Assembly (NCBI GenBank): GCA_039588275.1
Contig: JBDHAC010000021.1
Coordinates: 1 to 58,176, forward strand
Length of the DNA: 58,176 nucleotides
Source of the DNA: Gemmatimonadota bacterium
GTDB lineage: Bacteria > Gemmatimonadota > Gemmatimonadetes > Palauibacterales > Palauibacteraceae
Direction: 5' to 3'
Part shown: positions 38,263 through 57,697 of the stretch, piece after piece
How positions within the stretch are numbered: the stretch's first letter is position 1
Layout: each line of letters starts with the position of its first letter
Translations under genes and position numbers: made by a program
The notes under the pieces: generated by a model
What the model saw: the letters and a program-made list of their open reading frames with translations, nothing else
What the model was told of the DNA's origin: nothing
The model's database searches: none

Positions 38263-38272
38263 GTCCCCCCCT

Positions 38273-40171
38273 ATGTGCGGCATAGCCGGTGGCGTATTCC
38301 GCGAGCGGGGGCGTCGTTTCGACGCCCGACTGCTCACCCGCATGCGTGAGACCCTCGTTCATCGCGGTCCCGACGAAGCAGGACAGGCGGTCATCGGCCG
38401 AGCGGGCCTCGCGGTGCGTCGCCTGGCGGTCATCGATCTCGAGACCGGGAGCCAGCCCGTCCACAACGAGGACGAGACAATCACCGTCGTCCTCAACGGC
38501 GAGATCTACAACTTCCGGGAGCTCCGGCATGACCTTACCCATCGCGGTCACCGGTTCAGGACGGCAAGCGACACGGAGGTGATCGTACACCTGTACGAAG
38601 AACACGGGGACGCGTGCGTCGACCACCTGCGGGGGATGTTCGCCTTCGCCCTGTGGGACTCGACGCGCCAGCAACTCCTGCTCGCGCGTGATCGCCTGGG
38701 TCAGAAGCCGCTTTACTATCACGAGACGAACGAGCGTCTGCTGTTCGGGTCGGAGATCAAAGCCATCCTGCAAGATGCCGCCGTGCCTCGTGAGCCGGAC
38801 TTCGCGGGGATCGACGGCATGTTCACCTTCGGGCAGACGCTTCCGGGGCAAACCTGCCTCCTCGGGATCTCTGAGCTGCCGCCCGCTTCCACGCTCACCT
38901 ACAACGACGGCATCAGCCGGATTCGTCGGTATTGGGATCTCGTCTTCGAGCCCTCGCCCCGGTACGACGAGCGCGATGCCGAGGAGCGACTTCTCTCGCT
39001 CCTTCGGGAATCGGTACAGATGCGCCTGATCTCCGATGTACCGTTGGGGGCGCTATTGAGCGGGGGGATCGATTCGGCCGTCGTGGTCGCGCTGATGAGC
39101 GAGGTCAGCGAGGAGCCGGTCAAGACCTTCTCGATCGGATTCGACGATCCCTCGTACTCCGAACTGGACGGCGCGCGGCTCACAGCCCGCAAGTACGCGA
39201 CCGACCACCGCGAGCTGGTTGTTCACCCGGACATCCGCGATCTCCTCCCCACGCTGGTACGACATCACGACACTCCCTTCTACGACCCCTCCGCGGTCCC
39301 GACTTTTCTCGTGTGTCAGCTCGCCCGCGAAGACGTCACGGTAGCGTTGTCCGGTGATGGTGGGGACGAGCTGTTCGCGGGCTACAACCTCTATCTGGCA
39401 GGGAAGGTCGCCCCCCTTTTCCGGTGGATTCCCGAGTGGCTCCGAGCCGGAGTGATCAAGCCCCTTCTCGACCTCGTTCCCGAATCCTACGGCTACATCA
39501 ACAGGGGCCGAGTGGCCCGAGAGTTCCTGCGTGGTGCTTCGCTCGATCCGCACGCGCGCTATGCGCGTTGGACGACAAAGGTCAAGCACGAGATGCGTTG
39601 CCGGATCTATCGAACGCGGGAGCTGGTCCGGCAACTCGAGGCGGACGAGAGCGATCATGCGGGCAGCCTGTTCGAGCGTCAGCCCGAAGCGACAACGCTT
39701 GGCCGGACCTTGTACGCGGACATCAACACGGAGCTGCCGGGTCAGATCCTGACGAAAGTGGACAGGATGAGTATGGCCTCATCACTCGAGGTGAGATCTC
39801 CGCTACTGGATCACCGCCTGCACGAGTTCGCGGCAACGCTCCCGGATCAGGCGAAGCTGCGCGGCTGGACCACAAAACACCTGCTCAAGAAAGTGGCGGC
39901 CGATCTGATCCCCGCCGACATAATCGGAGGCCCCAAGCGGGGATTCGGTATCCCGCTCGATCGCTGGTTCCGAGATGAGCTCTCGGGATTCGCGCGCGAG
40001 ATCCTGTTCGATTCGGTGACCGGGGCTCGCGGGGTCTTCGACAAGAGCGCTGTCGAGGGAATCGTCGACGACCATCTGGCGGGTCGCGGACACTACGGAA
40101 GAGAGATCTGGCTGTTGCTCACGATGGAATTGTGGTTTCGCATGTACATCGATTCCTGCCCCGGTGACTGA
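38273..40171 (+). CDS. asnB: Asparagine synthase (glutamine-hydrolysing)-type amidotransferase, copy 2
   Basis: MCGIAG, NGEIYN, LSGGIDS, LSGDGGDELFAGY, KVDRMSM.SLEVRSP. Confidence 0.92.
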   Translation: MCGIAGGVFRERGRRFDARLLTRMRETLVHRGPDEAGQAVIGRAGLAVRRLAVIDLETGSQPVHNEDETITVVLNGEIYNFRELRHDLTHRGHRFRTASDTEVIVHLYEEHGDACVDHLRGMFAFALWDSTRQQLLLARDRLGQKPLYYHETNERLLFGSEIKAILQDAAVPREPDFAGIDGMFTFGQTLPGQTCLLGISELPPASTLTYNDGISRIRRYWDLVFEPSPRYDERDAEERLLSLLRESVQMRLISDVPLGALLSGGIDSAVVVALMSEVSEEPVKTFSIGFDDPSYSELDGARLTARKYATDHRELVVHPDIRDLLPTLVRHHDTPFYDPSAVPTFLVCQLAREDVTVALSGDGGDELFAGYNLYLAGKVAPLFRWIPEWLRAGVIKPLLDLVPESYGYINRGRVAREFLRGASLDPHARYARWTTKVKHEMRCRIYRTRELVRQLEADESDHAGSLFERQPEATTLGRTLYADINTELPGQILTKVDRMSMASSLEVRSPLLDHRLHEFAATLPDQAKLRGWTTKHLLKKVAADLIPADIIGGPKRGFGIPLDRWFRDELSGFAREILFDSVTGARGVFDKSAVEGIVDDHLAGRGHYGREIWLLLTMELWFRMYIDSCPGD

Positions 40172-41333
40172 CACCAGGGAGGAGGCCCGGGTGATGCTGG
40201 ACTGCCGGTTTCGGGAGGGAGCCGGTCCGAATGTCACCATGTTGTACATGCTTGATCACCTCATGAAGCTGAACGAGCGGTTCCGTTTCACCGTCGTTCA
40301 CCTGAAAGGCCAGCCGATTCCGCAATATGAGGGCGTCGAGCGGATTCTCGTCCCGTTCCGGAACCGCTTGCTGGAGTTCCTATGGGTACAGTTCCGGCTG
40401 CCATCATTGATCAAGCGCCACGGGATCTACGTGTATCACAGCCTCAAGCATGTGGGCCCGTTTCGTCCGCGAGTGCCATCGATCCTTCACTTGCGCGAGG
40501 CTGGACATTTCAGACCCGAGGGGCGCGAGGCCTTCCAGCTGAGCAGGGTCAACTCCATTTACTGGACTCAGCTACTCGAAATAGCGCTACGGAGGGTCGA
40601 TCGGGTAGCGAGTGTGTCTGAGTACTGCAAGAAGGTAGTCGTCGACGATCTGGGCATCGCAGGCGAGAAGATCGCGGTCGTGTACCAGGGCCTCGACCCT
40701 CGGTTTCACGTCCTCGACGAGTTTGAGGTGGCCGCGGTACGAGCGAAGTACGGATTGCCCCCCGATTACATCCTTTGCGTCGGTAATCTGTATCCACACA
40801 AGAACTACGATACCGTTGTCAAGATGCTGGCAGCGTTGCGAAGGCGTCGCGCGGACGACACAAGGCTGGTGTTCGTTGGAGACGCGAGGTACGCGACCCG
40901 CGAGTTCCGGGCCTTGATTCGCGAGCTCGAGTTGGAGGAGAGCATCGTCTTCACGGGCTTCGTGAAGCACGACGACCTGCCGGCGATCTACAACGGTGCG
41001 TCGGTCTTCGTGTTCGCACCGATCGCCGCGAGCTTTCCGAACCCGTGCCTCGAGGCGTTCGCCTGCGGTGTTCCCGTCGTTGCCTCGGATCGCGGGGCAA
41101 TTCCCGAGATCACGGCGGGCGCGGCGATCATGCTCGATAACCCCCGCGATGCGGACGCTATGCTCGACGCCGTCGTGGCCATCCTGGACGACGCTGATCG
41201 GCGCGCTGAACTCCGGTCACGTGGATTCGAGCGCGCAAAAAGCTTCAGCTGGAGCGTGAGCGCGCGAAAGCTGCTCGACATCTATGGCGCGATGGGCTCG
41301 GGTGGTGGGGAAGGAAACGCAGTTCAAGGGTAG
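40164..41333 (+). CDS. Glycosyltransferase family 4 (GT-B)
   Basis: VGN..PHKN, F..P.LEA.ACG.PV, FSW..SA. Confidence 0.88.
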   Translation: MTDTREEARVMLDCRFREGAGPNVTMLYMLDHLMKLNERFRFTVVHLKGQPIPQYEGVERILVPFRNRLLEFLWVQFRLPSLIKRHGIYVYHSLKHVGPFRPRVPSILHLREAGHFRPEGREAFQLSRVNSIYWTQLLEIALRRVDRVASVSEYCKKVVVDDLGIAGEKIAVVYQGLDPRFHVLDEFEVAAVRAKYGLPPDYILCVGNLYPHKNYDTVVKMLAALRRRRADDTRLVFVGDARYATREFRALIRELELEESIVFTGFVKHDDLPAIYNGASVFVFAPIAASFPNPCLEAFACGVPVVASDRGAIPEITAGAAIMLDNPRDADAMLDAVVAILDDADRRAELRSRGFERAKSFSWSVSARKLLDIYGAMGSGGGEGNAVQG

Positions 41334-43597: not shown

Positions 43598-44173
43598 ATG
43601 TCTCCCGCGTTCGTCACCCATGACTCGATTCGTGGGCTGCTCGCTGCCGTCGAGGGCTCGTTGCGGGTACCGGCTCGCGCGTATCTCGTGGGCGAGACAT
43701 CCGCGACGTGGGAGGGCTGGCGGCCGTGGACAGATCGCGTCCTGCTGTTCGGCGAGTCCGCTCCCTCGGAAGACGTCTCTCTCTCCGAGATGCTCGAGGG
43801 GGCAGCGGCCGATCTCGGCATCGCCCTGGTGCAGGAGTCTCCCGCCGACGTGATACCGCTCCCGGCCGGTTACGAGGCTCGGGCGCGACCCGCGGGCCGC
43901 GTGGGCGAACGTCTCGAGGTCTTCCACTTCGATCCGTACAGCCAATCCTTTCGCTTCTTGGCCCGCGGCGATGAGCGGGATTACGAGCTCGTGCTGGCGT
44001 TTCTGGAGCACGGGTGGGTCACGCTGGAAGACATGGACTCGTTGTTGCGCGATCTGCTTCCCCGGTTCTCGATGGACACGATCCAACAAGACCCGGCGGA
44101 GTTTCGACGCCGCTATCGGGGGCTCGTCCAGATGTGGCGAGCGCGCAGCCCGTCACGCCCACGCGTGACCTGA
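43598..44173 (+). CDS. DUF6036-like nucleotidyltransferase-fold protein with degenerate motifs
   Basis: YLVG.TS....GWR..T, SP.D.IPLP.G...R, H.DPYS, RG...D. Confidence 0.55.
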   Translation: MSPAFVTHDSIRGLLAAVEGSLRVPARAYLVGETSATWEGWRPWTDRVLLFGESAPSEDVSLSEMLEGAAADLGIALVQESPADVIPLPAGYEARARPAGRVGERLEVFHFDPYSQSFRFLARGDERDYELVLAFLEHGWVTLEDMDSLLRDLLPRFSMDTIQQDPAEFRRRYRGLVQMWRARSPSRPRVT

Positions 44174-44312
44174 CCGGAGGCGCCCGCGCCTTTGATGGCA
44201 GGAACCGACGGACAGCGGGTACGAAGTCGAGAGCGGAGATCCGCGAGAGCCTCGAGAGCTAGCAGAGCGGAATCGAGTCGAGACCACGGAGAGCGAGGAA
44301 GGGATCTCGAAC

Positions 44313-44888
44313 ATGACGGAAGCGGGTGAGCGGATTCAGGCCGTCGGATTCGCGGGCAGCCTGCGTCGAGGGTCGTTCAACCGAGCCCTGTTGCGAGCCG
44401 CCGTCGAGGTGGCGCCGGAAGAGCTGGAGCTGGAGGTGTTCGATCTGGCGCCCGTGCCACTTTACAGCGCCGATGTCGAAGCAGCCGGGGACCCCGAGTC
44501 CGTGGCCACACTGAAGGGCGCGATCCGGGCAGCGGATCTGCTGTTGATCGTGACGCCCGAGTACAACCAGGGTATCCCCGCCGTGACAAAGAATGCCGTG
44601 GACTGGGCCTCGAGGCCGCCGCGTCCACACGTCCTCGACGGGAAGCCGGTGGTCATCCTGGGTGCCACCCCGGGGCGCCTCGGCACCGTGAGCGCGCAGC
44701 GTGCGCTTCGCGAATCGCTATCGGCGCTCAGCGCCCATGTCATGCCCCAGCCGAGGATGTTGATCGCGGGCGCGGGCAAACTGTTCGACGACGACGGTAA
44801 TCTCGTGGATGAAAACACGCGCGAGCGTCTCGCGAAGTTCATGAACGCGGCTGTCGCGTGGGGCGGCCGCTTCCGCACCGACGGATGA
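44313..44888 (+). CDS. NADPH-dependent FMN reductase (ChrR-like)
   Basis: GSLRRGSFN, VTPEYN, KNAVDWASR. Confidence 0.92.
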   Translation: MTEAGERIQAVGFAGSLRRGSFNRALLRAAVEVAPEELELEVFDLAPVPLYSADVEAAGDPESVATLKGAIRAADLLLIVTPEYNQGIPAVTKNAVDWASRPPRPHVLDGKPVVILGATPGRLGTVSAQRALRESLSALSAHVMPQPRMLIAGAGKLFDDDGNLVDENTRERLAKFMNAAVAWGGRFRTDG

Positions 44889-45304
44889 TCATGGTCGAGG
44901 CGGGGGCCGGGCCTGCCGAGCCCAAGCTGAGAGTCCTGTACGATGGCGGGTGCAGGTTGTGCGTCCGCTCCGTGAGAATCCTCCACGGCCTCGATTTCGG
45001 GGGCGCGCTGGAATACCTGGACCTCGAGGATGAGGCGCAGGCCGCCCGCGTGCCGGGCGTGACTCGGGAGCAGGCCCTCGCCGCCATGCACGTCGTCGAT
45101 GCCGATGGCGAGCTGTATCGGGGCTTCTTCGCGGTTCGCCGGCTGGCGCGGAGCCTGCCGGCCCTGTGGCCGCTGCTGCCGGTCTTTCACGCTCCGCTAT
45201 CGAAGCGAGTCGGGCCCAGAGTGTACGACAGGGTAGCCCGGCGTCGCACTCGCGGAGGTTGCGGCCCCTCTGTCGGCGAGCGGACCGACCGCGGGGCTCC
45301 GTAA
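44885..45304 (+). CDS. DCC1-like thiol-disulfide oxidoreductase (DUF393)
   Basis: LYDGGCRLC (DxxCxxC) and Y..VA.RR; ATGA overlap with the upstream stop. Confidence 0.85.
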   Translation: MIMVEAGAGPAEPKLRVLYDGGCRLCVRSVRILHGLDFGGALEYLDLEDEAQAARVPGVTREQALAAMHVVDADGELYRGFFAVRRLARSLPALWPLLPVFHAPLSKRVGPRVYDRVARRRTRGGCGPSVGERTDRGAP

Positions 45305-45393
45305 CCCTCAGTAGATGATCCGGTCGATCTCCAGTGAGCGATCGGTTCCCAGCGGCGGGCCGTTCAGGCACGTCGGCCACCACAGGTTCCACA

Positions 45394-45512
45394 CCCCGGC
45401 GTATTTCGCTGAAACGCCATACGCCACGCGCTTTCATGCGCCATTCTGGCGTACTACCCGAACTCTGATACGCCGATCTAGCGAAACAGAACCCGCCCAG
45501 AAACTCGCCCAG
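45394..45512 (+). repeat. 119-bp conserved element, copy A
   Basis: Ungapped 101/119 identity, counted by hand, to 49157-49275. Confidence 0.9.
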
Positions 45513-45652
45513 CGATTGGTCGAGTGGAGCTTTCGAGCCCGTCCCCTCGCCTCGACGGCCACACGGTGCTGATCTACGTTCTATCGAACTAGCCCCGGAA
45601 TCTCGTTCTCACCCAAGTTGACGCCCCTGGCCGGAGAGCTTGCACGAAGTCG

Positions 45653-48600
45653 ATGGACGCAACGGACTGGGAACCTCTGAAACGGCTGTTCGAGCGCGCG
45701 AGCGCGTTGCCTGCCGAGGAGCAGGCCGCCTTCCTGGAGGACGCCTGCTCGGACGATCCGAGCCGCCAAGCCCAGCTCGCGTCCCTACTGGCCGCCGCGC
45801 AGGAGGCCGACCCCTTCTTCGATAGTCTCGCCGACGCCGTTCTCTCTCTCTCTCCGTGGGACCACGACGAGCCCTCACCGCCGACCCCGGCCCCCGACCC
45901 CTTGATCGGCACGTCGATACGCCAATACCGGATCGAGGAGGAGCTGGCCCGAGGCGGCATGGGGGTCGTGTACCGGGCGCACGACGCGAGCCTGAACCGA
46001 ACGGTCGCACTCAAGTTCCTCCCCCGCCGCATGACGGGGGACAAGGCCGCGACGGAACGCTTCCGCTTCGAGGCCCAGGCCGCTGCCGCCTTGGACCACC
46101 CGAACGTGTGCACGGTCTACGAGATCGGGGAGGACGAGCAGGGCCGGCTGTTCATCGCGATGGCTCACTACGAAGGCGAGACGCTCCAGCAGAAGCTTGA
46201 GCGCGGAGCGCTCCCCATCGACGAGGCGCTGGACTACGCCCGCCAGATCGCAGCGGGATTGGAAGCCGCCCACGCGCAGGAGATCGTCCACCGGGACATC
46301 AAGCCGGGCAACGTGATCGTGACCCCCGACGGCGTCGCGAAGATCCTCGACTTCGGGCTCGCCAAGCTGACCGACGTAGCGCTAACTGGCACCGGCATGA
46401 CGCTTGGGACCGTAGCCTACATGTCTCCGGAGCAGGTCCGGGGCGCGACCGTGGATCACCGGACGGACCTCTGGTCGCTTGGGGTCGTGCTGTACGAAAT
46501 GCTGACGGGCGAGCGCCCGTTCAAGGGCGAACGGAGTGCGGTCGTCATCCACGCAATCGTGCATGAACAGCAGAAACCGCTGCGCGCTCTGTGCTCCGAG
46601 GCCCCGCCCGCCTGGGAGTCGGCGGTCACGCGCCTCCTGAGCAAGGAGCCTGCGGATCGCTACTCCGACGTCCGCGACTTCGCCCGAGTGCTGGACGAGC
46701 TCGCTCGGCCCGCCCCCGCTCACGGCCCTCTGGCTAGAGTGGGCACCGCTGTCCCGCTGGTGCTCGGCCTGTACGCCGCCGTGACGTGGATCGTCCTCCA
46801 GGTGACCGACCGATTAATCGGACGCTACCTGCTACCGACCTGGGTGTCGCGCGGAGCTCTGCTGCTGCTGTTGATCGGCTTGCCGGTGATGTTGGCCGCA
46901 ACGCTCGTGCAGACGGGTTGGCAGGGACGACCTCACTCGAGCCTACGAAAGGTCAGGCGCTTTCTGACATGGCGCCGAGCTCTCCAGGGCGGTGTCGCGG
47001 CGTTCGCGCTCCTAGGCGGCGTGACGGGGACCTACTCGCTCTCTCGCGCCCTCGGAATCGGCCCGGCGGCAACGCTCGTTTCCCGGGGAGTGCTGGAAGA
47101 ACGCGCTCTCTTGGTTCTGTCGGACTTCGAGTCCGCAGACCCCGACATGGCGAGGTTGGCCACGGAGGCCTTCCGCATCGATCTCTCCCAGTCGCGGCTC
47201 GTCAGGCTGGCCCAGCGGCGCTTCGTCGGCGAGGCCCTCGGACGCATGGGCCGAGAGCCGGACGCACCCCTCAGCCTCACGCTCGCGCAGGAGGTGGCTC
47301 AGCGCGAGGGGGCCGCGGCCGTGGTCGGTGGCGAGATCCACGAAGCAGGCGGACAGTACCTGGTGGCGGTCCAGCTCTTCACGCCTGGCGGGCTCGAAGC
47401 ACTCGTATCGGGTCGGGAGACGGCGAGGGATTCGACAGAGATCATCGCTACGATCGACAAGGTCTCTGCGCTGCTTCGCGAGCGGATCGGTGAGTCCACT
47501 CGAACCCTGCGCGCCGAACCGCGTCTGGCTCGAGTAACCACGTCGAGTCTCGCAGCGCTTCGGAAGTACTCGCAGTCGAGCGAGGCGTGGCGAGCCCGCG
47601 ACCTCGAACGCGCGCTGCCGCTTCTCGAGGAAGCCGTCGCGCTGGATTCGACCTTCGCGATGGCATGGCGGCTCATCAGTCTCCGGTTGGACAACCTGGG
47701 CCGGGACCCCTCCCGGAGACGATACGCGATCACCAAGGCGTTCGAGTACCGGGACAGGCTGCCGGAGTACGAACGCTATTCCCTGATGGCCACCTACTAC
47801 CGGCTGGTGACGCACGAGCCGGCCAAGGTGATCGCGGCCTGGGAAGGCCGACTCTCACTGAATCCGGATGACCGCGGAGCGCTCAACAACCTCGCTGAAA
47901 TGGCCCTGCTGACGAGGGATTACGAGCGGGCCGAGACCTATTACAGGCGATGGCTAGAGACACAGACACGGCCGGTGGCGTATGCGAACCTCGCTTGGGC
48001 GCTGGCCGACCAGGGCAAATTCGAGGAAGCTCGGCGGACGATGGCCCCGGGGGACCCGGACGACCCCCTTACTAGGCGCTTTACCGGCATCATAGAGTCG
48101 GCGGCCGGTGACTACGCCGCTGCCAGAGCGCACTTCGAGGCCGTGCGGAACGAGCTGGCAGGAGTCTCGCCGGCGCAGCGGGCCTACGCCACCCGCGATC
48201 TGGCGGGTCTGTCGGCGGTTACCGGGAAGCTGACCGAGGCCGCTGCCTACCAGCGGGAGGCTATCAACGGGTTGGAGGAGCTGGGGTTCGCCCGTGATGT
48301 GCTGCGGGACGCGAGTCGCCTGGCCTACCAATACATCCTCGTGATGGAGGACCCGGCCAGCGGGCTGAGGACTCTGGAGGCCGCACTGGAACGGCACCCG
48401 CTCTCCGCCCTCGCACCGCTCGACAGACCCTATCTGGATGTGGTGGCGGTGTACGCGTTGGCCGGTCGACCGGACCGGGCACGCGCTCTCATGGGGGATT
48501 TCGAGAACGAGGTCGAGGCCCCGGACCGTCAGACCTGGGAAGAGGGTGACAGCGGGCTGCTTCGCGTCCACGGCCTCATCGCCGTGGCCGAAGGACGATA

Positions 48601-48973
48601 CGAAGACGCCATCGACCTCTTCCGACGTTCGGGTAAGAGGGGTTGCCTTCTTTGCGGGATGCCGGAGTTAGCCGCGTCGTTCGACCGGATCGGCCAACCC
48701 GACTCCGCGATCGCCGTTTACGAGCGCTACCTCTCCACGCCGTCCAGCGGCCGCGTCCAATCGACCTATCCGGCGCCAGGCGGCGACCGATACTACCTGG
48801 CGGCAGTCCTCGAGCGCCTCGGGCAGCTGTACGATGAGCGGGGCGATCTCGAGAACGCGGCGAGACACTACGGGAGGTTCGCAGAGCTATGGGCCGAGGC
48901 GGACGACGCGCTTCAGCCCCGCGTGCGCGCCGTACAGCGACGGCTCGAAGAGATCGTGGCAGAGCGGGGGTGA
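45653..48973 (+). CDS. Hanks-type Ser/Thr protein kinase with TM segments and a TPR region
   Basis: GGMGVVY, VALK, HRDIKPGN, DFG, GT..YMSPEQ, DLWSLG; hydrophobic segments; C-terminal TPRs. Confidence 0.93.
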   Translation: MDATDWEPLKRLFERASALPAEEQAAFLEDACSDDPSRQAQLASLLAAAQEADPFFDSLADAVLSLSPWDHDEPSPPTPAPDPLIGTSIRQYRIEEELARGGMGVVYRAHDASLNRTVALKFLPRRMTGDKAATERFRFEAQAAAALDHPNVCTVYEIGEDEQGRLFIAMAHYEGETLQQKLERGALPIDEALDYARQIAAGLEAAHAQEIVHRDIKPGNVIVTPDGVAKILDFGLAKLTDVALTGTGMTLGTVAYMSPEQVRGATVDHRTDLWSLGVVLYEMLTGERPFKGERSAVVIHAIVHEQQKPLRALCSEAPPAWESAVTRLLSKEPADRYSDVRDFARVLDELARPAPAHGPLARVGTAVPLVLGLYAAVTWIVLQVTDRLIGRYLLPTWVSRGALLLLLIGLPVMLAATLVQTGWQGRPHSSLRKVRRFLTWRRALQGGVAAFALLGGVTGTYSLSRALGIGPAATLVSRGVLEERALLVLSDFESADPDMARLATEAFRIDLSQSRLVRLAQRRFVGEALGRMGREPDAPLSLTLAQEVAQREGAAAVVGGEIHEAGGQYLVAVQLFTPGGLEALVSGRETARDSTEIIATIDKVSALLRERIGESTRTLRAEPRLARVTTSSLAALRKYSQSSEAWRARDLERALPLLEEAVALDSTFAMAWRLISLRLDNLGRDPSRRRYAITKAFEYRDRLPEYERYSLMATYYRLVTHEPAKVIAAWEGRLSLNPDDRGALNNLAEMALLTRDYERAETYYRRWLETQTRPVAYANLAWALADQGKFEEARRTMAPGDPDDPLTRRFTGIIESAAGDYAAARAHFEAVRNELAGVSPAQRAYATRDLAGLSAVTGKLTEAAAYQREAINGLEELGFARDVLRDASRLAYQYILVMEDPASGLRTLEAALERHPLSALAPLDRPYLDVVAVYALAGRPDRARALMGDFENEVEAPDRQTWEEGDSGLLRVHGLIAVAEGRYEDAIDLFRRSGKRGCLLCGMPELAASFDRIGQPDSAIAVYERYLSTPSSGRVQSTYPAPGGDRYYLAAVLERLGQLYDERGDLENAARHYGRFAELWAEADDALQPRVRAVQRRLEEIVAERG

Positions 48974-49061
48974 GCGGTTGGCGTCAAGCGAGGCCACCGC
49001 CTCGACGTTCACCACCCAGCCAATCGGCTCACGAGCCATTCCCCGAGTTCGCACGAGCCCT

Positions 49062-49090
49062 GTGCCGTGCCGCGGCGTACGGGGTAGCTT
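49062..49090 (+). promoter_or_regulatory. Sigma70-type promoter upstream of the tRNA-Leu 5' fragment
   Basis: GTGCCG-17 bp-TAGCTT, homologous to the promoter at 52020-52048. Confidence 0.55.
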
Positions 49091-49106
49091 TACCCGGACG
49101 CTACAC

Positions 49107-49145
49107 GCCGGGGTGGCGGAACCGGTAGACGCATCGGACTTAAAA
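49107..49145 (+). repeat. 5' half of tRNA-Leu(TAA), att-like fragment
   Basis: 39/39 identical to 52065-52103, ending exactly at the end of the anticodon loop CTTAAAA. Confidence 0.93.
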
Positions 49146-49156
49146 ACGGCCCGCTG

Positions 49157-49275
49157 CCCCGGCGTATTTCGCTAGATCGCCATACGCCGCGCGCCTTCTT
49201 ACGCTATTCTAGCGTATCTCCCAAGCTCTGATACGCTGATCTAGCGAACCAGAACCCGCCCAGGAACCCGCCCAG
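49157..49275 (+). repeat. 119-bp conserved element, copy B
   Basis: Homologous to 45394-45512. Contains internal inverted repeats and the 12-bp-period direct repeat GAACCCGCCCAG x2. Confidence 0.9.
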
Positions 49276-49320
49276 TGGGTGGACCGTGCCCACGCGGAGG
49301 GTCGGCCTCTAAAGCCTACG

Positions 49321-51795
49321 TCAGGAACGCCCGCCGCCTGCGAGGCCTCGCCGCCGCGCCTCGAGGAAGACCACACCGATGCCCCTCGGATACTCTCCAA
49401 CGTCCTCTTCCGCGCCCTGGGAAACGGGCGTGAACGTCACAGGGCCTCGCACGGTGGCTGCGAGCTCGGGCGGCAGTCGATCCGGCTGCTCGCCCAACAA
49501 TAGAACGAACGAGAAGTTACCTCCCACTCCCTCGTGCACTCTCGGCCTGAAGTAGGCTGCGTCGGCCCAATCTCGGGTCCACTCACTGAAGGTGTCCACG
49601 CCGTCTCCGTCCAGGAAAACAGCCAGTGACTGAACCAGGGCGGCGCCCGGCTTGAAGCCCATCCGCATGTAATCGGTATAGGTGTCATCCCCAGTGACAT
49701 CGATCAAGAACCCCACCCCGAGGTCCCACCCGCTTCCCGAGGTAGCGCCCCCGCTGTAGAGATCGTCCCCCGCGCGATCCAACACGAGGCCGGTGCCGTG
49801 GTGAATCCCCTCCCCGAGGCCGCTGTGATCCTCCTCCTCCCTTTTCATCGCGATGTAGACGTCATCGCCTGCGCCATCGATCAACGCCCCAATCCCGGCC
49901 GAAAAACCGTTTCCTAGCCCGAACGTGCTCCCGACGTAAAGGTCGTCGCCTCCACCGTCGCTAACGAACCCGAAACCACCGACATACGCGACCCGGTTAG
50001 TGTGCGACGTCCACGCTTCGCTTCGCCAGCCGGATCCGACGCCGATCCCAAAACCTTCGAACCCCCGATCCGGACCGTCCGCCTGCTGGTAGTGGGACCG
50101 GTACACGCCCCAGGACTGGTAGACGTCTTTCCCATCCCCCTGATCTCGAAGGAGTCCAACGCCCTTGTTGAAGCCGATGCCGATGGACTGTATGGCTGCT
50201 ATGTACCAGTCGTTTCCCGCCTCGTCGCTCAAGAGTCCGACCCCCGGTCCATACGCCGCTCCGAGGGCCCACTTGTCGACCAGGTAGGTGTCGTCGCCCG
50301 CTCGATCGATATGCATCCCGATGCCGAAGTACGCCGCTCCGTATGAGAATCCGCCGTCCAGGGAGGCAGGATTCTCGCCACCGTAGACCCGGGTCGGATG
50401 GACCCACCGCGCCTCTGACTCGGCGTCACGAGTCAAGAGCGTCTCGCGCTCCCGGCCGCGTTCTGGGTCCATCCCCTGCGAGTAGATGTCGTCGCCTTCT
50501 TGATCGAGAAGTATACCCAGCCCGAAGACGCCCGCGCCCGGACCGAAGGGTGTGCGGTGGCCGTATACGTCGTCTCCATGAAGGTCGATCAGGATTCGGA
50601 GGGGGTACCGACCCAAGCGGGTCAGGTCGTGCTCCACCTCATAGGTATCGTTGCCGCCCACGTCGACCAGGATCGACGCCTGGACGTCCATGTAGCGATT
50701 GGCACCGGGGCCACCGATGAGCAGGTCTCCGTACGGGGTCTCTCGATAGAGAAGGACGTCACCATCAACGCCGGGTACTCGCACCGTTCCACTCGTGTTG
50801 GCCGCTTGGGCGAATCCCCGCTCCAGGCGATCGAGGAAGGGTGTTTCGAGAACCGGGGCTATGGTGAGAAAGGCGCGGGCGACCGCGGCCAGGTCGATTT
50901 GCCGACCCGTGAAAGGGGCGTGCTGCCCCTCCCACTCCTGCTCGGCGTCTGGCCCGCTCAGGCCCTCCGTGGTGAAGTCGTCCCCCGCCAGAGAGCGGAA
51001 GAGATGGTAGGCAGAGGTGACGCTCGGCAGGGTCGCCGGAACCCTCAGTCCTTGGGGGGTCTTCTCCGAACCCGGTTCAAAATAGCGAGCGTACTTTACG
51101 ACGCCGTCCTCGAGATACGCGTCGGTTAGACCCCAGTTGTAGGCCGGTGCATCGAGGGGGTTGGACGTGTAGGTGCCTCCGGTCGTCGTGGTGAAGCGCA
51201 GCAGGAAGCCCAGCAGAGCCCGTTCCTCGCTCCCGAGCGCCCCCAGCGCTTCTTCGTCGAGGATTCGGTGCGCCGCGCGAGCGGCGGCATCAAGCATATC
51301 CACGGCCGGGCGTTGGGCAGCTTGCATCGGCATCTCTGGACGGGGGATATCAGCCGCTTCGAGCGCAGTGACCATGAGCTCCAGGGGAGTCTCCGCGCCC
51401 TCCACCCGACGGGCCAAGCGCTCCAAGATTGAGGGAACACTCAGAGGATCTTCCGCCATCCGCTGTTTGAGCTTAAGACGACGAAACCGATAGCGCTCGT
51501 CTACGGATGCCTCGTATCCGGCTCGATAATCACGCCAAGCCGCATAGTCGGCGGCCACGCCGAACTGCGCGTGGAGGTAGCCGTCACCGATTGCGAGCGA
51601 GGGCTCATACCGCTGGAGCGTGAGGGGATCGCGCAGCGTCTCTCGTATCATGCCCAGGCCCCGCCGCAGGACATCCTCCGTCGATTCGAAGCGGTCCGGG
51701 CGCTCCTGGTCGGTGTGAGGCTTCGCCGGGTCGGTAAGGGCGACGGGGAGAGCGATCAGCCCGATAACCGGGGCAAGTGCAAGGAGCCGCTTCAC
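49321..51795 (-). CDS. Secreted protein with about 11 Gly/Asp-rich hhxDxxG(N/D)DxY repeats
   Basis: Signal-like N-terminus (KRLLALAPVIGLIALP). Repeats include ILVDVGGNDTY, ILIDLHGDDVY, LLDQEGDDIY, HIDRAGDDTY, LIDGAGDDVY, VLDRAGDDLY, LIDVTGDDTY. Confidence 0.8.
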   Translation of the reverse strand: MKRLLALAPVIGLIALPVALTDPAKPHTDQERPDRFESTEDVLRRGLGMIRETLRDPLTLQRYEPSLAIGDGYLHAQFGVAADYAAWRDYRAGYEASVDERYRFRRLKLKQRMAEDPLSVPSILERLARRVEGAETPLELMVTALEAADIPRPEMPMQAAQRPAVDMLDAAARAAHRILDEEALGALGSEERALLGFLLRFTTTTGGTYTSNPLDAPAYNWGLTDAYLEDGVVKYARYFEPGSEKTPQGLRVPATLPSVTSAYHLFRSLAGDDFTTEGLSGPDAEQEWEGQHAPFTGRQIDLAAVARAFLTIAPVLETPFLDRLERGFAQAANTSGTVRVPGVDGDVLLYRETPYGDLLIGGPGANRYMDVQASILVDVGGNDTYEVEHDLTRLGRYPLRILIDLHGDDVYGHRTPFGPGAGVFGLGILLDQEGDDIYSQGMDPERGRERETLLTRDAESEARWVHPTRVYGGENPASLDGGFSYGAAYFGIGMHIDRAGDDTYLVDKWALGAAYGPGVGLLSDEAGNDWYIAAIQSIGIGFNKGVGLLRDQGDGKDVYQSWGVYRSHYQQADGPDRGFEGFGIGVGSGWRSEAWTSHTNRVAYVGGFGFVSDGGGDDLYVGSTFGLGNGFSAGIGALIDGAGDDVYIAMKREEEDHSGLGEGIHHGTGLVLDRAGDDLYSGGATSGSGWDLGVGFLIDVTGDDTYTDYMRMGFKPGAALVQSLAVFLDGDGVDTFSEWTRDWADAAYFRPRVHEGVGGNFSFVLLLGEQPDRLPPELAATVRGPVTFTPVSQGAEEDVGEYPRGIGVVFLEARRRGLAGGGRS

Positions 51796-52019
51796 GAAAT
51801 CAACCCTCTGCCGACGAAGGGTACCGTGCGCCTGCCGCACCCGTCACGCCTTGAGAGGACGCGGCGTGAGGCATGACGAACGCTCATGGTCGTGACGTGT
51901 TGTCGGCGATGTCACGTCATGGCTCATTGGGAAGGTAGTAGGGGGTGCGCACGATGCCAGACACCCGTTTTGTCAGGGGGAGAGTTAGCCGGTTCAGTAT
52001 CCTCGAACACTCACCCCCT

Positions 52020-52048
52020 GTGCCACCTCTCGGCGATTGGGGTAGCTT
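52020..52048 (+). promoter_or_regulatory. Sigma70-type promoter of tRNA-Leu
   Basis: GTGCCA-17 bp-TAGCTT, ending 16 bp upstream of the tRNA. Confidence 0.55.
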
Positions 52049-52064
52049 TGTGCGGACGCTACGC

Positions 52065-52150
52065 GCCGGGGTGGCGGAACCGGTAGACGCATCGGACTTA
52101 AAATCCGTGGAGACGCGAGTCTCGTGTGGGTTCGAATCCCACCCCCGGCA
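52065..52150 (+). tRNA. tRNA-Leu (anticodon TAA)
   Basis: Acceptor GCCGGGG/CCCCGGC plus A; D-loop GGTAGAC; anticodon loop CTTAAAA; long variable arm GAGAC-GCGA-GTCTC; T-arm GTGGG-TTCGAAT-CCCAC; no encoded CCA. Confidence 0.96.
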
Positions 52151-52212
52151 TGTTGTTCCACAAGCACTTGCGCCGTTCGACCCCCTTTCGGTGTCGGCCC
52201 GAAAACAGGGTC

Positions 52213-52242
52213 CGGTCACAAACCCGGTCACGGCTCGGTCAC
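52213..52242 (+). repeat. Three direct repeats of CGGTCAC (11-12 bp period), candidate integrase arm-type sites
   Basis: CGGTCAC-AAACC-CGGTCAC-GGCT-CGGTCAC between the tRNA and the integrase stop codon. Confidence 0.6.
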
Positions 52243-52261
52243 GGAAAAGTCCCATGTGCAT

Positions 52262-53439
52262 TCAGGCTGTTTGGCCTCGGAGGTCCAGCACGTTGACTTC
52301 CCCGTATTGGACGACAGGGCTCCGATGCCGGGTCTGGAGCAAGTGACCGTACGTGCTCTCGATCAACTTCAGATCCCGGTGACCGAGCTCCCGCATCACC
52401 GTGTAGGGGCTCACTGGCTGGCCGTGGTCCAACGTCTGGATCCGGGCCGCAGCGTACGTGTGCCGGAAGGTATGGTGCGTGATGTGCTTGTCGATCTCGG
52501 CCTGTGCTGCCAAGGCCCTCATGGAACCCCGCACGTCCCTCAGCATCCCACCACCAGATGCAGGGAAGAGAAGCCCGTCCTCGCGTTCGAAGAGCATCCC
52601 ATGTAGCGTGCTAGGATCTCACGGAGCTGGGGCCACAGTGGCACCCAGCGGGGATGGTGTTCGCGCTTGAGCCGACGCCACGCGTTGTGGCGGAAGTGCA
52701 CGACATCGTTGTCGAAATCGATGTCGCGAAGTTCGAATCCAAAGACCTCGCCCCGTCGCCCACCGGTGAGGAGAAAGGCTGCGAACAGGGCCTCGAGATA
52801 CGGAAGCGCCCGGGGGCTCGGATCCGCATCGGCATCACGCGCCTTCTCAAGGTACCTGGCAGCTTCACCGATCTCGAGCCAGGTCGCCTCGGCATGAGCG
52901 ACGCTCGGTTTGTCTGGGAGCATAGCGACCGGATTTGCCACCGCCTTCTTCTCCGCCACCGCGCGTTTGTAGAGGCTCGACAGGGCATGGAGTTCGTGAA
53001 GGATCGTCTGGGGAGCAGTCTTCGTGCCTTCGCGCTTACCCGGCTGCCGACTCCGCCGGAGGACGTAGTCAGTCAGCCGCTCCACGGTCACCTGGGAGAG
53101 ACGGACGTCCTCACCGAAATACTCCAGGACATGACGAAGCGAGAGCTCATCACGGGCGACGGTTGAGGCTCGCCGATACTGAGCTTTGATCTCAAGGTGG
53201 CGTTTCGCGTATTCACGCAAGAATGGGTCAGACGCTGAGCGACCGGAACGCAGTTCCTTCAACTCTTTCAGCCGTGCGGCCAGGAGCGTCGCTGCTGTGT
53301 CGCGGTTATTCGTCGCGAACCGATCCCCTGGCGGGATCATGGCCTCCTGGCGCCCGCCGACATCCCGAAAATCGCGGAAGTCGCCGTACCAGCCGCGCCC
53401 TTCGCGCAGGTAGAGTCGATCGCCACGCTTCTTAGCCAT
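52262..53439 (-). pseudogene. Tyrosine recombinase/integrase split by a frameshift near 52600
   Basis: Frame 1 (53439 to about 52600) has LLTGGRRGE (catalytic R) and LK. Frame 2 (52597-52262) has HTFRH, LGH and Y. Confidence 0.88.
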
Positions 53440-53788
53440 GTTCCGGCTCCCAGAGTCTCGGTGTCTTCGGGTGCCCGTTCACCGGAGTCCCCCGTATTGT
53501 ATAGACCTCGACGACGGGGATCCGCCATTCCCCCTTCTGCCCGCTCGTCTTCCACGCTCCGGCGAAGCGGCCCGCCTCGCAATACCGGCGTACCGTCTTC
53601 GCCGAAAGCCCGAGGATCGCGCCGGCCTCCGCAGTCGTGACCGCGCGGTCAACGGTTTCAGTCCCGTCCAGCGTACGGAGGTCCTCGAGGAAGATGCCAA
53701 ACGCCTTCGCCAGCGGAGCCAACGTACGTAGCTCGGTCGCTTCGGCGCGTAACCGCTCATACTTCTCGACCAACTCGGCGACTTTCAT
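53432..53788 (-). CDS. HTH (MerR-like / HTH_17) excisionase-like protein
   Basis: TTAEAGAILGLSAKTVRRYC..G.F..A.K....WRIP; overlaps the integrase start. Confidence 0.8.
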   Translation of the reverse strand: MKVAELVEKYERLRAEATELRTLAPLAKAFGIFLEDLRTLDGTETVDRAVTTAEAGAILGLSAKTVRRYCEAGRFAGAWKTSGQKGEWRIPVVEVYTIRGTPVNGHPKTPRLWEPEHG

Positions 53789-53794
53789 TCCTTG

Positions 53795-54166
53795 TCAGGG
53801 AGCGCGAGCGCATCGCCGCGCCATTCTTCGGTCAGGTTCCAGCGTCAACGCGACCCTCGAACGTCGAGGGTACCGCGGCGGTCCCCGGGACCGCCGCGAC
53901 GCTTCGAGCTGGGCGGTTGGAACTTCGACGTTGGGATCACCGCCGCCCGGGCCCGGCCACAGCTCCCCATTACTCAACCTCACGACCTCGAGTATCGCTC
54001 GCCCCTCCCGTTGCCGCCGAAGGCGCTCGGCGAACCTGAGGAAGTCAACCCAAGCGAGAGCGCGACGCCGCTTTTCCTCCCAGTAATCGCCGGCGCTTGG
54101 CTCTCGCGCAGAAGGTCCAAGTGATGCTGAACGGGCGGTGTGTCGAGAACACAGCTTGGCGCTCAC
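53795..54166 (-). CDS. Hypothetical protein of the integrase-bearing element, possibly degraded
   Basis: Co-oriented ORF directly upstream of the xis-like gene; no motif recognised. Confidence 0.35.
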   Translation of the reverse strand: MSAKLCSRHTARSASLGPSAREPSAGDYWEEKRRRALAWVDFLRFAERLRRQREGRAILEVVRLSNGELWPGPGGGDPNVEVPTAQLEASRRSRGPPRYPRRSRVALTLEPDRRMARRCARAP

Positions 54167-54303
54167 GGAGAGGCCTGCTCTCCGCTCAACTCTTCCTCGA
54201 CAGCGGCATCCACCAGTCGCCGGATTAGCTCAGACTCAGGGAGCCCGCGGGGGTGCTCCCAAGCCGTGATCGCCCCCGCACCGCCGTACCGCAGGAGGCC
54301 CCC

Positions 54304-54776
54304 ATGTCCCGCAAGTACCTCACCATGTTCCTTGGCTTCATGCTCCTTTCCGCAGCTCACGAGACGTTATCGGCACAACAGCAGGAATACGCGTCGCCGG
54401 AGCTGAAGGCCGCCATCGCGGAAGCGAACGAGACCTGGCAGGCGGGTTGGAACGCCGCCGATGCTGCCGCCATCGCGTCCGTGTACGCGGACGATGCGAT
54501 CGTCATGCCCCCCGGAGCCGAGCCGATCGAGGGCCGCGAGGCGTTCCAGGCGACCCTCGTGGGCTGGCTCGAAGCCGCGCGGAGGGGAGCCAAATGGCCT
54601 TCGGGCCGCCGGAGATCTTGGTCTACGGCGACGTGGCGGTCGAGGTGGGCTCGTTCGTCGAGACGGCCGCCGGCGGGTCGCACAAGGACCACGGGAAGTA
54701 CATGACGGTGTTGAAGAATATCGACGGGCACTGGAAGATCGTCCGCGATATTTGGAACAGCAGCATGACGCCGTAG
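54304..54776 (+). pseudogene. DUF4440/SnoaL-like (NTF2-fold) secreted protein, frameshifted near 54580
   Basis: Signal peptide plus WNAADAAAIASVYADDAIVMPPGAEPIEGREA in one frame. GDVAVEVG...GKYMTVLK...WKIVRDIWNS continues in another frame. Confidence 0.8.
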
Positions 54777-55082
54777 CCCGAGCCGGTAGGGGCGGACTCA
54801 GCGCCCCCCCCCCCGGTTCAGCGGAGGGTCGCGAGTGAGAGCTGCGGCCGCTGACGCGGTCCTCATTCGTCGCGAGCTCCCCGAATCTCACCGCCCCGAT
54901 TAAGGTTTTGAGAAGCGCGGACCGCGATAGGGTCCATATGAAGTCCGATCGGTCCTAACTCGCGGTCGTGTTCTGACACCGGCCGACCCGCTGCCTAGCT
55001 GGTGAGAACTCGCCCAGCCGGGTTACGTCCAGAGCCCCCCCTTTTCGCGGAAACGGGGGGGCGGCTCTGCGTGCTGTCGATG

Positions 55083-55116
55083 AAAAAGGGGCCGCCCGAT
55101 CGATTCGGGCGGCCCC
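55083..55116 (-). terminator. Rho-independent terminator of the cold-shock gene
   Basis: 12-bp stem GGGGCCGCCCGA/TCGGGCGGCCCC followed by T5 on the minus strand. Confidence 0.85.
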
Positions 55117-55145
55117 TCCTCCTTCGTGATTCGGTTAGCCAGAGG

Positions 55146-55355
55146 TTAGCTGACCGGAATCACGTTCTCCGCCGCGGGGCCCTTAGTGCCTTCGACGACG
55201 TCGAATTCCACCTGAGAGCCCTCCGCGAGCGTCTTGAACCCCTCGAGCTGAATGGCCGAGTGGTGCACGAAGCAGTCATTGCTCCCGTCTTCCGGCGTGA
55301 TGAAGCCGAAGCCCTTTTGGTCGTTGAACCACTTCACGGTGCCTTTGCTACGCAT
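55146..55355 (-). CDS. cspA: Cold-shock protein
   Basis: GTVKWFN..KGFGFI, FVHHSAI, GFKTL.EG..V.F, KGPAA.NV. Confidence 0.95.
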
Positions 55356-55867
55356 AATCCAGTTTCCTTCTGCTCATTTGTCATGGTCGGAGCATGGATT
55401 ACCCGTACCCTCGACACACTGACACTCGCGCGGAATCCCCCGCGCCGGGGTAGTGAGCCGACGGACAAAAAAATGGGAAGCCCGTGTTGATAAAGGCTTC
55501 CCGCCCATCACGATCGCTCACTGTTCGGCACTTTGCCGAGCCCGAATATCATCGAACCCACGCAGGACGTCAAGCCCCGCGAGCCGCACAGGCCCCAACG
55601 GTCCGATGACGACCGACACGACCACCCGAACGGGAGCTTCCCCGCGTCCTTCAGCGAGTGCTTGCCGTGCGCCAGTCAGCGCCCACGAGCGCCGGAGCCC
55701 CATGAGACGGCATTCCTTCAGCGCTGACTCGCGCGTGACTCGGGCCTGATACGCGTGAGGTCGGTGGCGCCCTCGACGTCCGGGCGCGAACCATGTCCTG
55801 GACTGACGACCGGGTGCGCATCACCGGGCTGGGGCCAGGACGAGGCTACGAAGAGTCCGGAAACGAA

Positions 55868-55930
55868 CTGTCACGCTAGCTGTCACAGAGTGTGCAGGAG
55901 TGTACCGAGGTGTATCGAAGTGTACGGACG
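55868..55930 (+). repeat. Phased direct repeats: CTGTCAC x2 (12-bp period) and GTGTRY x4 (10-bp period)
   Basis: CTGTCAC at 55868 and 55880; GTGTGC, GTGTAC, GTGTAT, GTGTAC at 55890, 55900, 55910, 55920. Confidence 0.7.
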
Positions 55931-56053
55931 CTGCGCCGGTGAACTTCCTGAGTCTGGTCGGGATACTATTGGCAGGGCCGTTCGCCCGGTCGTTGCCCTA
56001 GGCGAATCGTGCGGAGCGATCCCGGCGAGCGGAGTGAAACGAAGGAGCGTCCA

Positions 56054-56296
56054 ATGTTTGGCTTGAGCCCGTGGGAACTTATGATCGTGTTTCTCGCGAT
56101 CCTTCTGCTATTCGGCGCCAAACGCCTGCCGGAGATCGGCAGCTCGCTCGGCAAGGGAATCCGGGAGTTCAAGGACTCCATTTCGGACGTCGAGGGGGAG
56201 ATCGGGGGCGAGATCACCGGGTCGAACGACACCTCCGCACCACAGGCGGCGCCTAGCGAGCCCGCAAAGACGCAGGAATCCGCCGACACCCAGTAG
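56054..56296 (+). CDS. tatA: Twin-arginine translocase TatA/E
   Basis: MFGLSPWEL...LLLFGAKRLPEIG.SLGKGIREFK; AAGGAG RBS. Confidence 0.95.
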   Translation: MFGLSPWELMIVFLAILLLFGAKRLPEIGSSLGKGIREFKDSISDVEGEIGGEITGSNDTSAPQAAPSEPAKTQESADTQ

Positions 56297-56622
56297 TTTT
56301 GCAAACCTCGAGGACTGCGGTTCGCGAACATCTCGTGCTCCTGACCGCCCCGCGAGCCCCGTCAGTCCGCCGAGGCCACGAGTTCCGGTGTCACGGCCCA
56401 CCTCATCAGCGACCACTCCCCGTCCTCCCGGTTCAGGCAGAGGATCCCCGACATCCTGAAGCGGACGACTCCGGCCTCAGGGTCCCCGGCCAGCAGGAGG
56501 GAGGCCAGGCGACTCATGAAGACCGGGCGGGATGTTGTCGTTCGGCTTGAGTCCCGGGACGCCCATTAGGAGGTGCTGCGGCGTGCTTCTGTGTGGCGTG
56601 GAGTTGGTGCATGTACCCGCCA

Positions 56623-56853
56623 TCAGGAGAGTTCGCCCCAGGGCTCCAGGGGAGCATCGGAGGGCCCGACGTTAGCCGCGTTGAGCACGCTGGGCGGTGC
56701 CGGTGGGGCATTGAATACGGAGCGTATCGGCGGGCCACCCGTGACCCAGGCGGAGCCGTCCCAGGTCTCGACCCAGGATAGAGGGCCGTCCGAGACCACG
56801 CGGGAGATCCCGCCGGCCACCATCGAGGGTGGTGTGCGGACCACTTTACCCAT
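56623..56853 (-). CDS. Small hypothetical protein
   Basis: GAGGAG RBS, ATG 56853, 76 aa containing WVETWDGSAWVTGG. Confidence 0.45.
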   Translation of the reverse strand: MGKVVRTPPSMVAGGISRVVSDGPLSWVETWDGSAWVTGGPPIRSVFNAPPAPPSVLNAANVGPSDAPLEPWGELS

Positions 56854-57098
56854 AATCGACCCCTCCTCCGGGCTCGTCAGGTTCCAGCCCACGAGCGACC
56901 CCGCCTCGGCAATGACTTCGTTTGGGTGGTGCGATAGGGTTCCTCCGGGCGGGCTCGCCAGTGGCCGGGCGGTTAAGAGATAAGCCAGCTGTTACTTTCA
57001 CGTCACCTTCGCCTCCCTGATCACCACAATCGCGTCAACCGGCGGTTCAGGCCAGCACTCTCGACAATTTCGACAGCCACGAGGTGAGAAAGGCCAAC

Positions 57099-57560
57099 TC
57101 ACGACTGCGCGAGGTCCTCGAACGTGATGACGAGTCCTCCCCCGGCCCAGCGGGCGAGCGTCTCCTCTTCGGGCTCGAGGCCCAGCCCCCAGGTGGCGTC
57201 CCGGACCGCAACGGTCCGGTAGCCCCTCGCCTGTATCCCGTCGATCGCCTGCGTCATGCACACGTCCCGCGCTACCCCGACCACGACGATCTCCGGCTCG
57301 CCGCCGAGCTCCGTCGCGAGCACCTCGAGCAGCGCCTCTGCGCCCGGGTTCCCCTCGAAGACATCGAATCGGTTCTTCTGGATAAAGATCGGTCGACGTT
57401 CCCGGAGCGCAGTGCGGGCAACGCGTTCTGCCGCTTCGGGCCCCGCTCCCCGCTCGAGCACGACGGGGTCGTCGGGCCGGATCGACTCGATCACCAATGC
57501 TCCCTCGCGCTCTTCCGGGTCCTCGGATAGCCCCAGGCAATGCGGCGGGTAGGTTCCAGG
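57099..57560 (-). pseudogene. 5'-truncated nicotinamidase/isochorismatase (cysteine hydrolase)
   Basis: YPPHC, K..FDVF, GVA.DVC and D.T.G are present. The N-terminal VDxQxDF and metal-binding D/H motifs are absent. Confidence 0.7.
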
Positions 57561-57697
57561 CCCCACAGCTGGAGGATCAAACACATGAAGTCTGAGAACC
57601 TGTCGAGGGAATGTTCGCGCGCCCGCACACGCGGTCTTATTCAATACCATGCAGGGTGAAGACCTGGTTGCATACGACGAGCACGGGAGTTTGCAGA

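Follow-up and report, generated by a model that had tools for sequence, protein, structure and literature searches.

A 2,958-bp insert in front of tRNA-Leu(TAA) in a Gemmatimonadota bacterium is a likely stripped derivative of a tyrosine-integrase island

We analyzed a 58,176-nt stretch of DNA from a Gemmatimonadota bacterium (the window; positions 1-58,176 of contig JBDHAC010000021.1, assembly GCA_039588275.1; source genome labelled G000). Directly in front of an intact tRNA-Leu(TAA) gene, the window carries two consecutive units, unit 1 (about 45394-49145) and unit 2 (49146-52103). The 2,958 bp of unit 2 are an insertion, flanked on either side by a 39-nt repeat from the 5′ half of the tRNA gene. 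We consider it likely that unit 2 is a stripped derivative of a 5′-side tyrosine-integrase island and resembles a cis-mobilizable element (CIME).

Both units share the same layout, namely a 119-bp element (E), one cargo open reading frame (ORF), and a promoter-like segment (P) followed by the 5′ half of tRNA-Leu. The element occurs as E1 (45394-45512, forward strand) and E2 (49157-49275), which are identical at 101 of 119 positions, and a spaced pattern built from them gave two matches in the window and none in 100 shuffles. A second repeat, 49058-49145 versus 52016-52103, is 86% identical. Its last 39 nt, which correspond to nt 1-39 of the tRNA and end at the anticodon loop, are identical in both copies (49107-49145 and 52065-52103; 39/39), and the 49 nt upstream match at 37 positions. 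These upstream parts are the promoter-like segments P1 (49058-49106) and P2 (52016-52064), both on the forward strand. The second 5′ half is part of the intact tRNA-Leu(TAA) at 52065-52150 (forward strand; called by ARAGORN and matching Rfam RF00005). Thus, the two-unit structure in front of tRNA-Leu is real, and both the layout and the tRNA half that stops at the anticodon loop agree with what a preliminary description had read from the sequence. The cargo of unit 1 is a 1,106-aa Ser/Thr kinase with TPR repeats (45653-48973, forward strand; Pfam PF00069, E 3e-49, plus TPR families). That of unit 2 is a repeat protein of about 824 aa on the reverse strand (49321-51795, ORF extendable to 51840), annotated without a function. 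It matched no Pfam or NCBIfam family, its nearest Atlas clusters are unnamed, and its hydrophobic N-terminus was judged by eye only. Beyond the one cargo ORF per unit, no integration or transfer genes were found: 45394-52064 contained no Pfam integrase, and no conjugation genes were seen in units 1 and 2. An Rfam scan of 45200-52400 returned only the tRNA and one sub-threshold snoRNA match.

The empty site was present in another genome of the same genus, G001. On its contig C46, window positions 45644-49145 align at 85% identity and run straight into an intact tRNA-Leu(TAA), so that kinase, promoter segment, and tRNA are contiguous without unit 2. A precise empty-site allele, as the preliminary description had anticipated, is hence available for unit 2. 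We conclude that unit 2 was genuinely inserted next to the 5′ end of tRNA-Leu(TAA). A search of 113 other genomes of the same family did not recover its cargo in any of them. Homologues with 58-63% identity occur in 5 of 10 genomes of one genus in another family, with no tRNA in the fetched flanks (up to 1.5 kb); in three of these five genomes, the neighbor looks by eye like a histidine kinase. Given the empty site in G001 and the distribution of the cargo, unit 2 was most simply gained in the lineage of G000. The kinase of unit 1, on the other hand, is syntenic in G001 and 85% identical, with flanks at 82-87%. Since it is shared at the same identity as its flanks, unit 1 is old, and a reading of it as a recent mobile unit is not supported. 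It likely stems from an earlier event of the same kind and was already carried by the common ancestor with G001. Where E1 lies in the window, G001 carries other genes, and the block just downstream of E1 is retained.

We also considered that the repeat might be an assembly artefact or the product of two strains joined at the 39-nt repeat. The assembly is a metagenome bin, and no contig from the read runs spans either junction of unit 2 completely. The 49 nt flanking the repeat, however, differ at 12 positions, and the same type of junction occurs at a second tRNA of G000 and in many other genomes. Furthermore, run X1, which may be the source sample, contains pieces identical to the interior and the flanks of unit 2, and a run of another study contains 51943-52093 without differences. 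An artefact is therefore highly improbable. Neither a 2,958-bp circle nor the empty-site joint was detected in the low-depth contigs of runs X1, X2, and X4, whose depth is too low for this result to carry weight.

The origin of unit 2 is indicated by its left end. The stretch from 49146 to 49275 (forward strand), which includes E2, starts with a 13-nt inverted repeat of tRNA nt 1-13 (49151-49163), contains three near-palindromic boxes, and closes with a repeat pair (49252-49262 and 49265-49275). It aligns with the left arm of a 30.7-kb island in G366, a genome of another family. This island occupies the 5′ side of tRNA-Leu(TAA) and carries a full-length, frameshifted integrase. Its left arm shares the inverted TTCGCT and AGCGAA boxes of E and is likewise closed by a repeat pair of this type. 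Two further copies of E were found on contig C17 of G000, one of them behind a 39-nt 5′ half of tRNA-Leu(CAA), 3,812 bp upstream of that tRNA. Directly before this tRNA-Leu(CAA), C17 encodes a 54-aa C-terminus of a tyrosine integrase, 73% identical to the G366 integrase, next to a CGCCCAG repeat pair that is the same as at the end of E. Because the boxes and the terminal repeat pair are common to the G366 arm, and an integrase remnant lies beside the copy on C17, E is likely the left arm of the attachment (att) site of a 5′-side integrase family. E1, which has the CGCCCAG repeat pair and lacks a tRNA half, would then be an orphan remnant of such an arm. As E stands behind a tRNA-Leu 5′ half at each of two tRNA loci in G000, the proposal that it is tied to tRNA-Leu and is not a dispersed repeat was borne out. 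The same holds for the expectation of different cargo behind the same left end, since E copies at other loci carry other genes.

A 169-nt junction query against 401 genomes of the phylum, with two candidates scored per genome, recovered the full element only in G000 and G015, and the three matches of the spaced pattern in a collection of genome contigs were all copies already known. Three further matches in JGI metagenome contigs did not align to E and were taken as chance. E folds better than shuffled sequences (z about -3); it matched no Rfam family, and no attC model was run. We accordingly dropped a known RNA family as an explanation of E. A protein-coding remnant was likewise rejected, as six-frame searches matched only copies of E, save for a weak match on C62 (E 0.002).

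The inverted repeat at the start of E tracks the target. It is fully complementary for tRNA-Leu(CAA) and forms two G-T pairs for tRNA-Leu(TAA) in the window, with one compensatory change between the two. The G366 junction lacks it, and in a covariation count on the 13-bp hairpin, 181 to 330 of 500 shuffles scored as high, most rows being without the 5′ arm. Six copies of E lie away from 5′-side junctions, in G000, G001, G002, and G015, and retain part of the tRNA half; in five of them, this part starts between nt 12 and 22 (at 16-17 in most), and in the sixth it is almost complete. A further displaced copy in run X1 starts at nt 23. At least four displaced copies sit inside other tRNA islands. 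A crossover in the D-loop at secondary sites would fit these copies; no right ends matching such a crossover were found.

Some displaced copies are accompanied by genes. On C17 of G000, a kinase-TPR gene together with E and a partial tRNA-Leu(CAA) half (L001:6060-9184) lies inverted inside a 3′-side island of the same tRNA, and G015 has comparable E-kinase blocks, as does G002 in broken form. Two genera share a cassette led by a MerR gene and carrying E (L016:1-2382 and L019:1320-3699), with 90% identity along 2.4 kb; the G015 copy is flanked by a pair of tRNA-Pro-like att scars.

Starting from the 54-aa remnant on C17, we reached a family of tyrosine integrases (PF00589) at 111 loci with 88 distinct C-termini. 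The sample was seeded from 5′-side members, and the counts are not frequencies in the phylum. A locus was assigned to the 5′ side if an intact tRNA on the same strand followed within 200 nt downstream of the integrase, and to the 3′ side if the tRNA was convergent. By this definition, 33 of the 88 C-termini were 5′-side, 26 had a convergent tRNA, and 29 had neither. The 5′-side loci span 14 tRNA types. Among the 22 members with at least 55% identity to the reference, 17 were 5′-side and none 3′-side. Short integrase frames not at the edge of a locus accounted for 17/33 on the 5′ side versus 7/26 on the 3′ side. Complete 5′-side islands with intact integrases were found at tRNA-Val (17.7 kb) and tRNA-Pro (6.0 kb), and decayed ones with integrase remnants (0.6-10 kb) at tRNA-Met, tRNA-Gly, and tRNA-Leu(TAG). 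An integrase gene inside the island, as in the relatives G366, G379, and G319, is not present in the window units. E-like arms also follow tRNA-Val(TAC) 5′ halves in G047 (L073) and G059 (L026). The DNA fetched for G079, G214, G212, G030, G326, G219, and G038 revealed no left 5′ half, and one locus of the family in a viral collection showed no 5′ junction. At L073 of G047, a 2.7-kb integrase-less unit stands in tandem after an integrase remnant.

G000 itself has remnants of the family on C41 and C17 with 70% and 73% identity to the G366 piece, and an intact member of 41% identity on the 3′ side of tRNA-Lys; an intact member above 55% was not found in this assembly, which is 86% complete. Integrase C-termini of the family lie directly upstream of tRNA-Leu(TAG) (C41:551-1031) and tRNA-Pro(TGG) (C83:5-442), with the left ends off the contigs. 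A quick tree, not a finished search, mixed 5′- and 3′-side members and placed sister integrases on opposite sides of tRNA-Val. Close members occur on the 3′ side of tRNA-Gly in G493 and on the 5′ side in G015. This suggests that att polarity may flip easily between close integrases. At L112 and L113, and at L172, L173, and L065, closely related integrases occupy the one or the other side of a given tRNA type (Val, Gly).

The right ends of the units are less well defined. The predicted -35 and -10 boxes lie at 49062-49067 and 49085-49090 in P1, and at 52020-52025 and 52043-52048 in P2. The predicted promoter (GTGCCA, 17 nt, TAGCTT) is weak, with 7 of 12 consensus positions, and a sigma-70 scan did not call it. 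Of the claim that each unit supplies a sigma70-like promoter and a tRNA half, the replacement 5′ half and a promoter-like segment stand, and the promoter is left with a weak consensus. The TAGCTT hexamer also precedes tRNA-Leu(TAA) in G015 and G376, and a TANNNT hexamer occurs at the -10 position before 15 of 55 tRNA calls in G000 versus 4.8% of random sites. P1 is orthologous to the G001 segment before the intact tRNA and identical to it at 40 of 49 positions, with homology continuing upstream; P2 matches that segment at 35 of 49 and is unrelated beyond it (15 of 51). The similarity between P1 and P2 stops just upstream of the -35 box. We scored the right ends for the pair of arm repeats against 2,000 background sequences. 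The fraction scoring as high was 0.49 for unit 2 (background) and 0.022 for unit 1 (weak), and 0/2,000 for C17, G068, G059, and G366, four ends that helped to build the matrix. Checked for the att sites of a CIME, unit 2 has both 39-nt cores and the left arm and lacks the right arm-repeat pair, and unit 1 lacks the left core.

These features would be explained if a circle carrying a promoter, tRNA nt 1-39, and arm E had crossed over with the tRNA gene of the chromosome at the anticodon loop. The resident promoter and 5′ half would then have been left joined to E, with 49107-49145 as the putative attL core, and the tRNA would have been rebuilt behind the incoming promoter, such that P2 and nt 1-39 of the intact tRNA (attR) would derive from unit 2. 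The integrase and the right-hand arm repeats were likely deleted, either before or after arrival. The 49-bp promoter was presumably kept by the host's need for its tRNA, as it would serve the single tRNA-Leu(TAA) that was called in the assembly. The stop of the P1/P2 homology at the -35 box fits this proposal.

Several observations weigh against this interpretation. Both right ends lack the arm-repeat pair seen in the integrase-bearing relatives, the core shows little symmetry to the right of the anticodon loop, and P1 and P2 resemble the usual promoters of host tRNA genes. Starting from E, blastn does not detect the G366 arm, and the homology is based on a multiple alignment and shared motifs. 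The displaced copies of E, which mostly keep tRNA nt 16-22 onward, are not explained by an anticodon crossover. For unit 1, we found neither an empty site nor a detectable tRNA remnant left of E1, where 61% of 2,000 random windows score as high. Finally, window positions 44001-58176 contain no trace of a family integrase (best E 0.5), and decay in place is not shown.

The host-like promoters without arms, the pre-circle layout of unit 1, and the displaced copies of E inside other tRNA islands in G000, G001, G002, and G015 would also agree with gene capture. Here, a displaced E with a partial tRNA half would have landed left of a gene near a native tRNA promoter, and a circle released by recombination between the two copies of the tRNA half would have re-entered a related chromosome; the promoters would in that case belong to the host. 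This route requires several rare steps, however, and in none of the five genomes with cargo homologues does the homologue lie beside a tRNA promoter (flanks up to 1.5 kb). As selection on the promoter is the simpler account of the 49-bp homology, we regard gene capture as unlikely.

The preliminary description favored a family of dedicated non-autonomous cassettes that are still moved in trans by an integrase encoded elsewhere and form an array on the 5′ side of the tRNA. What speaks for this view, besides the well-preserved E2 and tRNA half, comes from the related genus g15 (G059, G047, G493). Its three species carry seven Leu(TAA) 5′-half junctions: three followed by an intact tRNA in G493, three in G059, and one with an intact tRNA in G047. 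Six of the seven have a shared right end, 85-94% identical in the aligned part, and the cargo differs. Most copies keep the arm-repeat pair, and the promoter segment differs from that of the window. Two integrase queries gave no match in any of the 11 g15 stretches (94 kb in total), and G493 carries intact family integrases elsewhere in its genome. The arrays are located on C27, C55, and C286 of G493, C173, C188, and C64 of G059, and C106 and C240 of G047 (L192-L198, L024, L025). Integrase-less arrays with conserved ends and different cargo thus exist, as had been supposed. Judged by sequence, the g15 arrays, with ends conserved across three species, are a cleaner example of integrase-less tRNA-Leu(TAA) cassettes than the window. 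They are the best evidence for the cassette idea, although they lie on short contigs of another genus and have a different promoter segment. The window units, by contrast, are without the right-arm repeat pair retained in g15, number only two, one of them old, and come from an assembly in which no intact family member exceeds 55% identity to the piece from G366. Unit 2 was moreover found in no other genome searched. For the window, trans-mobilized cassettes are therefore rather unlikely. A broader version remains tentative and is somewhat doubtful: a live system of Gemmatimonadota in front of tRNAs, in which integrase-less packets with conserved arms, their own promoter, and a 5′ half are moved in trans by a polarity-flipping family integrase, and in which the leftover half-tRNA of the Leu version folds into a 13-bp hairpin and may cross near the D-loop. 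Such a system would be shown in the g15 arrays, not in the window.

With the right ends lacking the arm-repeat pair, unit 1 being old, and a helper unsupported, ordinary decay of 5′-side islands accounts for the window no worse than a dedicated family of non-autonomous elements would. We therefore retain a stripped island as the likely origin of unit 2 and regard the window as a small, partly decayed example of accretion in front of a tRNA. Of the earlier interpretation, 5′-side integration, the replacement half-tRNA with a promoter-like segment, the empty site, and the varied cargo remain, and the helper, a recent unit 1, and an integron-like system do not.

The only integrase in the window belongs to a separate element on the 3′ side of the tRNA. 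It is split into two ORFs (52262-53439, reverse strand; PF00589 on the short one) and lies beside an excisionase-like HTH_17 ORF (53432-53788, reverse strand; PF12728, E 1e-8) and three GGTCAC direct repeats (52214-52242, forward strand), read from the sequence and likely the arm sites of this element. The integrase faces the tRNA convergently, and its halves are 41% and 39% identical to an intact integrase on C8. This neighbor had been suggested as a helper that mobilizes the units. Its best BLASTP match to the 5′-side family had an E value of 0.037, which is no meaningful similarity, its arm repeats differ, and it faces the tRNA from the 3′ side. On these grounds we set it aside as the mobilizing enzyme; it is probably not the helper.

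Further downstream, a displaced tRNA 3′ fragment, as left by 3′-side islands at their att scars, has its T-loop broken by a 35-55-nt GC-rich insert starting GGGAGCTGCGGCCGCTG. The same insert occurs in five copies in G000 and one in G001 (window 54800-54900; G000 C17 41822-41875; L014:13939-13992; three places on G000 C70). A single CGCCCAG arm-like repeat (55003-55018) and tandem direct repeats ending in a tRNA-Pro-island-like end (55860-55945) flank a gene that, by eye, resembles a cold-shock protein gene; these are probably more island scars. Upstream of the units, 36325-41333 contains two tandem asparagine-synthase-family genes, 1,957 nt apart and with 71% identity in their best-matching 153 nt. 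After them comes a group 1 glycosyltransferase gene, and this part is also present in G001.

The first island with a 5′ fragment was reportedly described by Zhao and Williams in 2002. In the Islander catalogue, 159 of 3,919 islands have a 5′ fragment, and an integrase is required (Hudson, Lau and Williams, PMC4383910). Integration at the distal 5′ side of tRNAs is described as less frequent (PMC6563490), and upstream integration at the D-loop has been outlined for Klebsiella (bioRxiv 10.1101/2020.11.02.365908). Unit 2 resembles an Islander island in that an intact tRNA is preceded by a displaced 5′ fragment in the same orientation (49107-49145, tRNA nt 1-39), with identity ending at the anticodon loop, in its length within the 2-200 kb range, and in having relatives that carry a family of tyrosine integrases at this position. 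It differs in having no integrase, and island finders that require one would miss units like unit 2. The 5′ polarity, 4% of catalogued tRNA islands, is common in our seeded sample (33/88 loci), where near-sister integrases flank either side of the same tRNA; this offers a system for studying how att-site polarity switches. We found no literature on this integrase family or on integrase-less 5′-side arrays, most subscription papers lying beyond the search. An integrase-less tRNA array is here tied to a specific integrase family, and a single phylum shows the stages from the intact island via one with an integrase remnant to the bare cassette.

CIMEs and their tandem accretion have been defined by Guedon et al. 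(2017; PMC5704250). As there, integrase-less, decayed elements are stacked at one site through successive rounds of site-specific integration and derive from a related autonomous element at the same tRNA, as the G366 arm and the C17 remnant suggest. CIMEs, however, keep both att sites and were described at 3′ ends beside conjugative elements, whereas the window units lie on the 5′ side and lack the right arm repeats.

Tandem one-gene units lacking their own recombinase are typical of integrons, which rely on IntI and attI, and tycheposons have a vesicle route. Tycheposons of Prochlorococcus arise by successive integrations at one tRNA, with cargo elements divided by partial tRNA copies (Hackl et al., bioRxiv 10.1101/2020.12.28.424599). 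Stacked cargo with partial tRNA copies and decayed integrases is common to both systems; compared by description only, tycheposons are identified there as integrase-carrying elements with replication modules. The units share with integron cassettes the tandem arrangement of single genes without a recombinase. IntI or attI was not seen (no IntI profile was run), nothing integron-specific occurs in the window, and the folding of E matches no Rfam family; the junctions are derived from a tRNA, the arms are direct repeats, and each unit has its own promoter-like segment for the host tRNA. The array is best read as a variant of known island biology and not as a new integron-like system.

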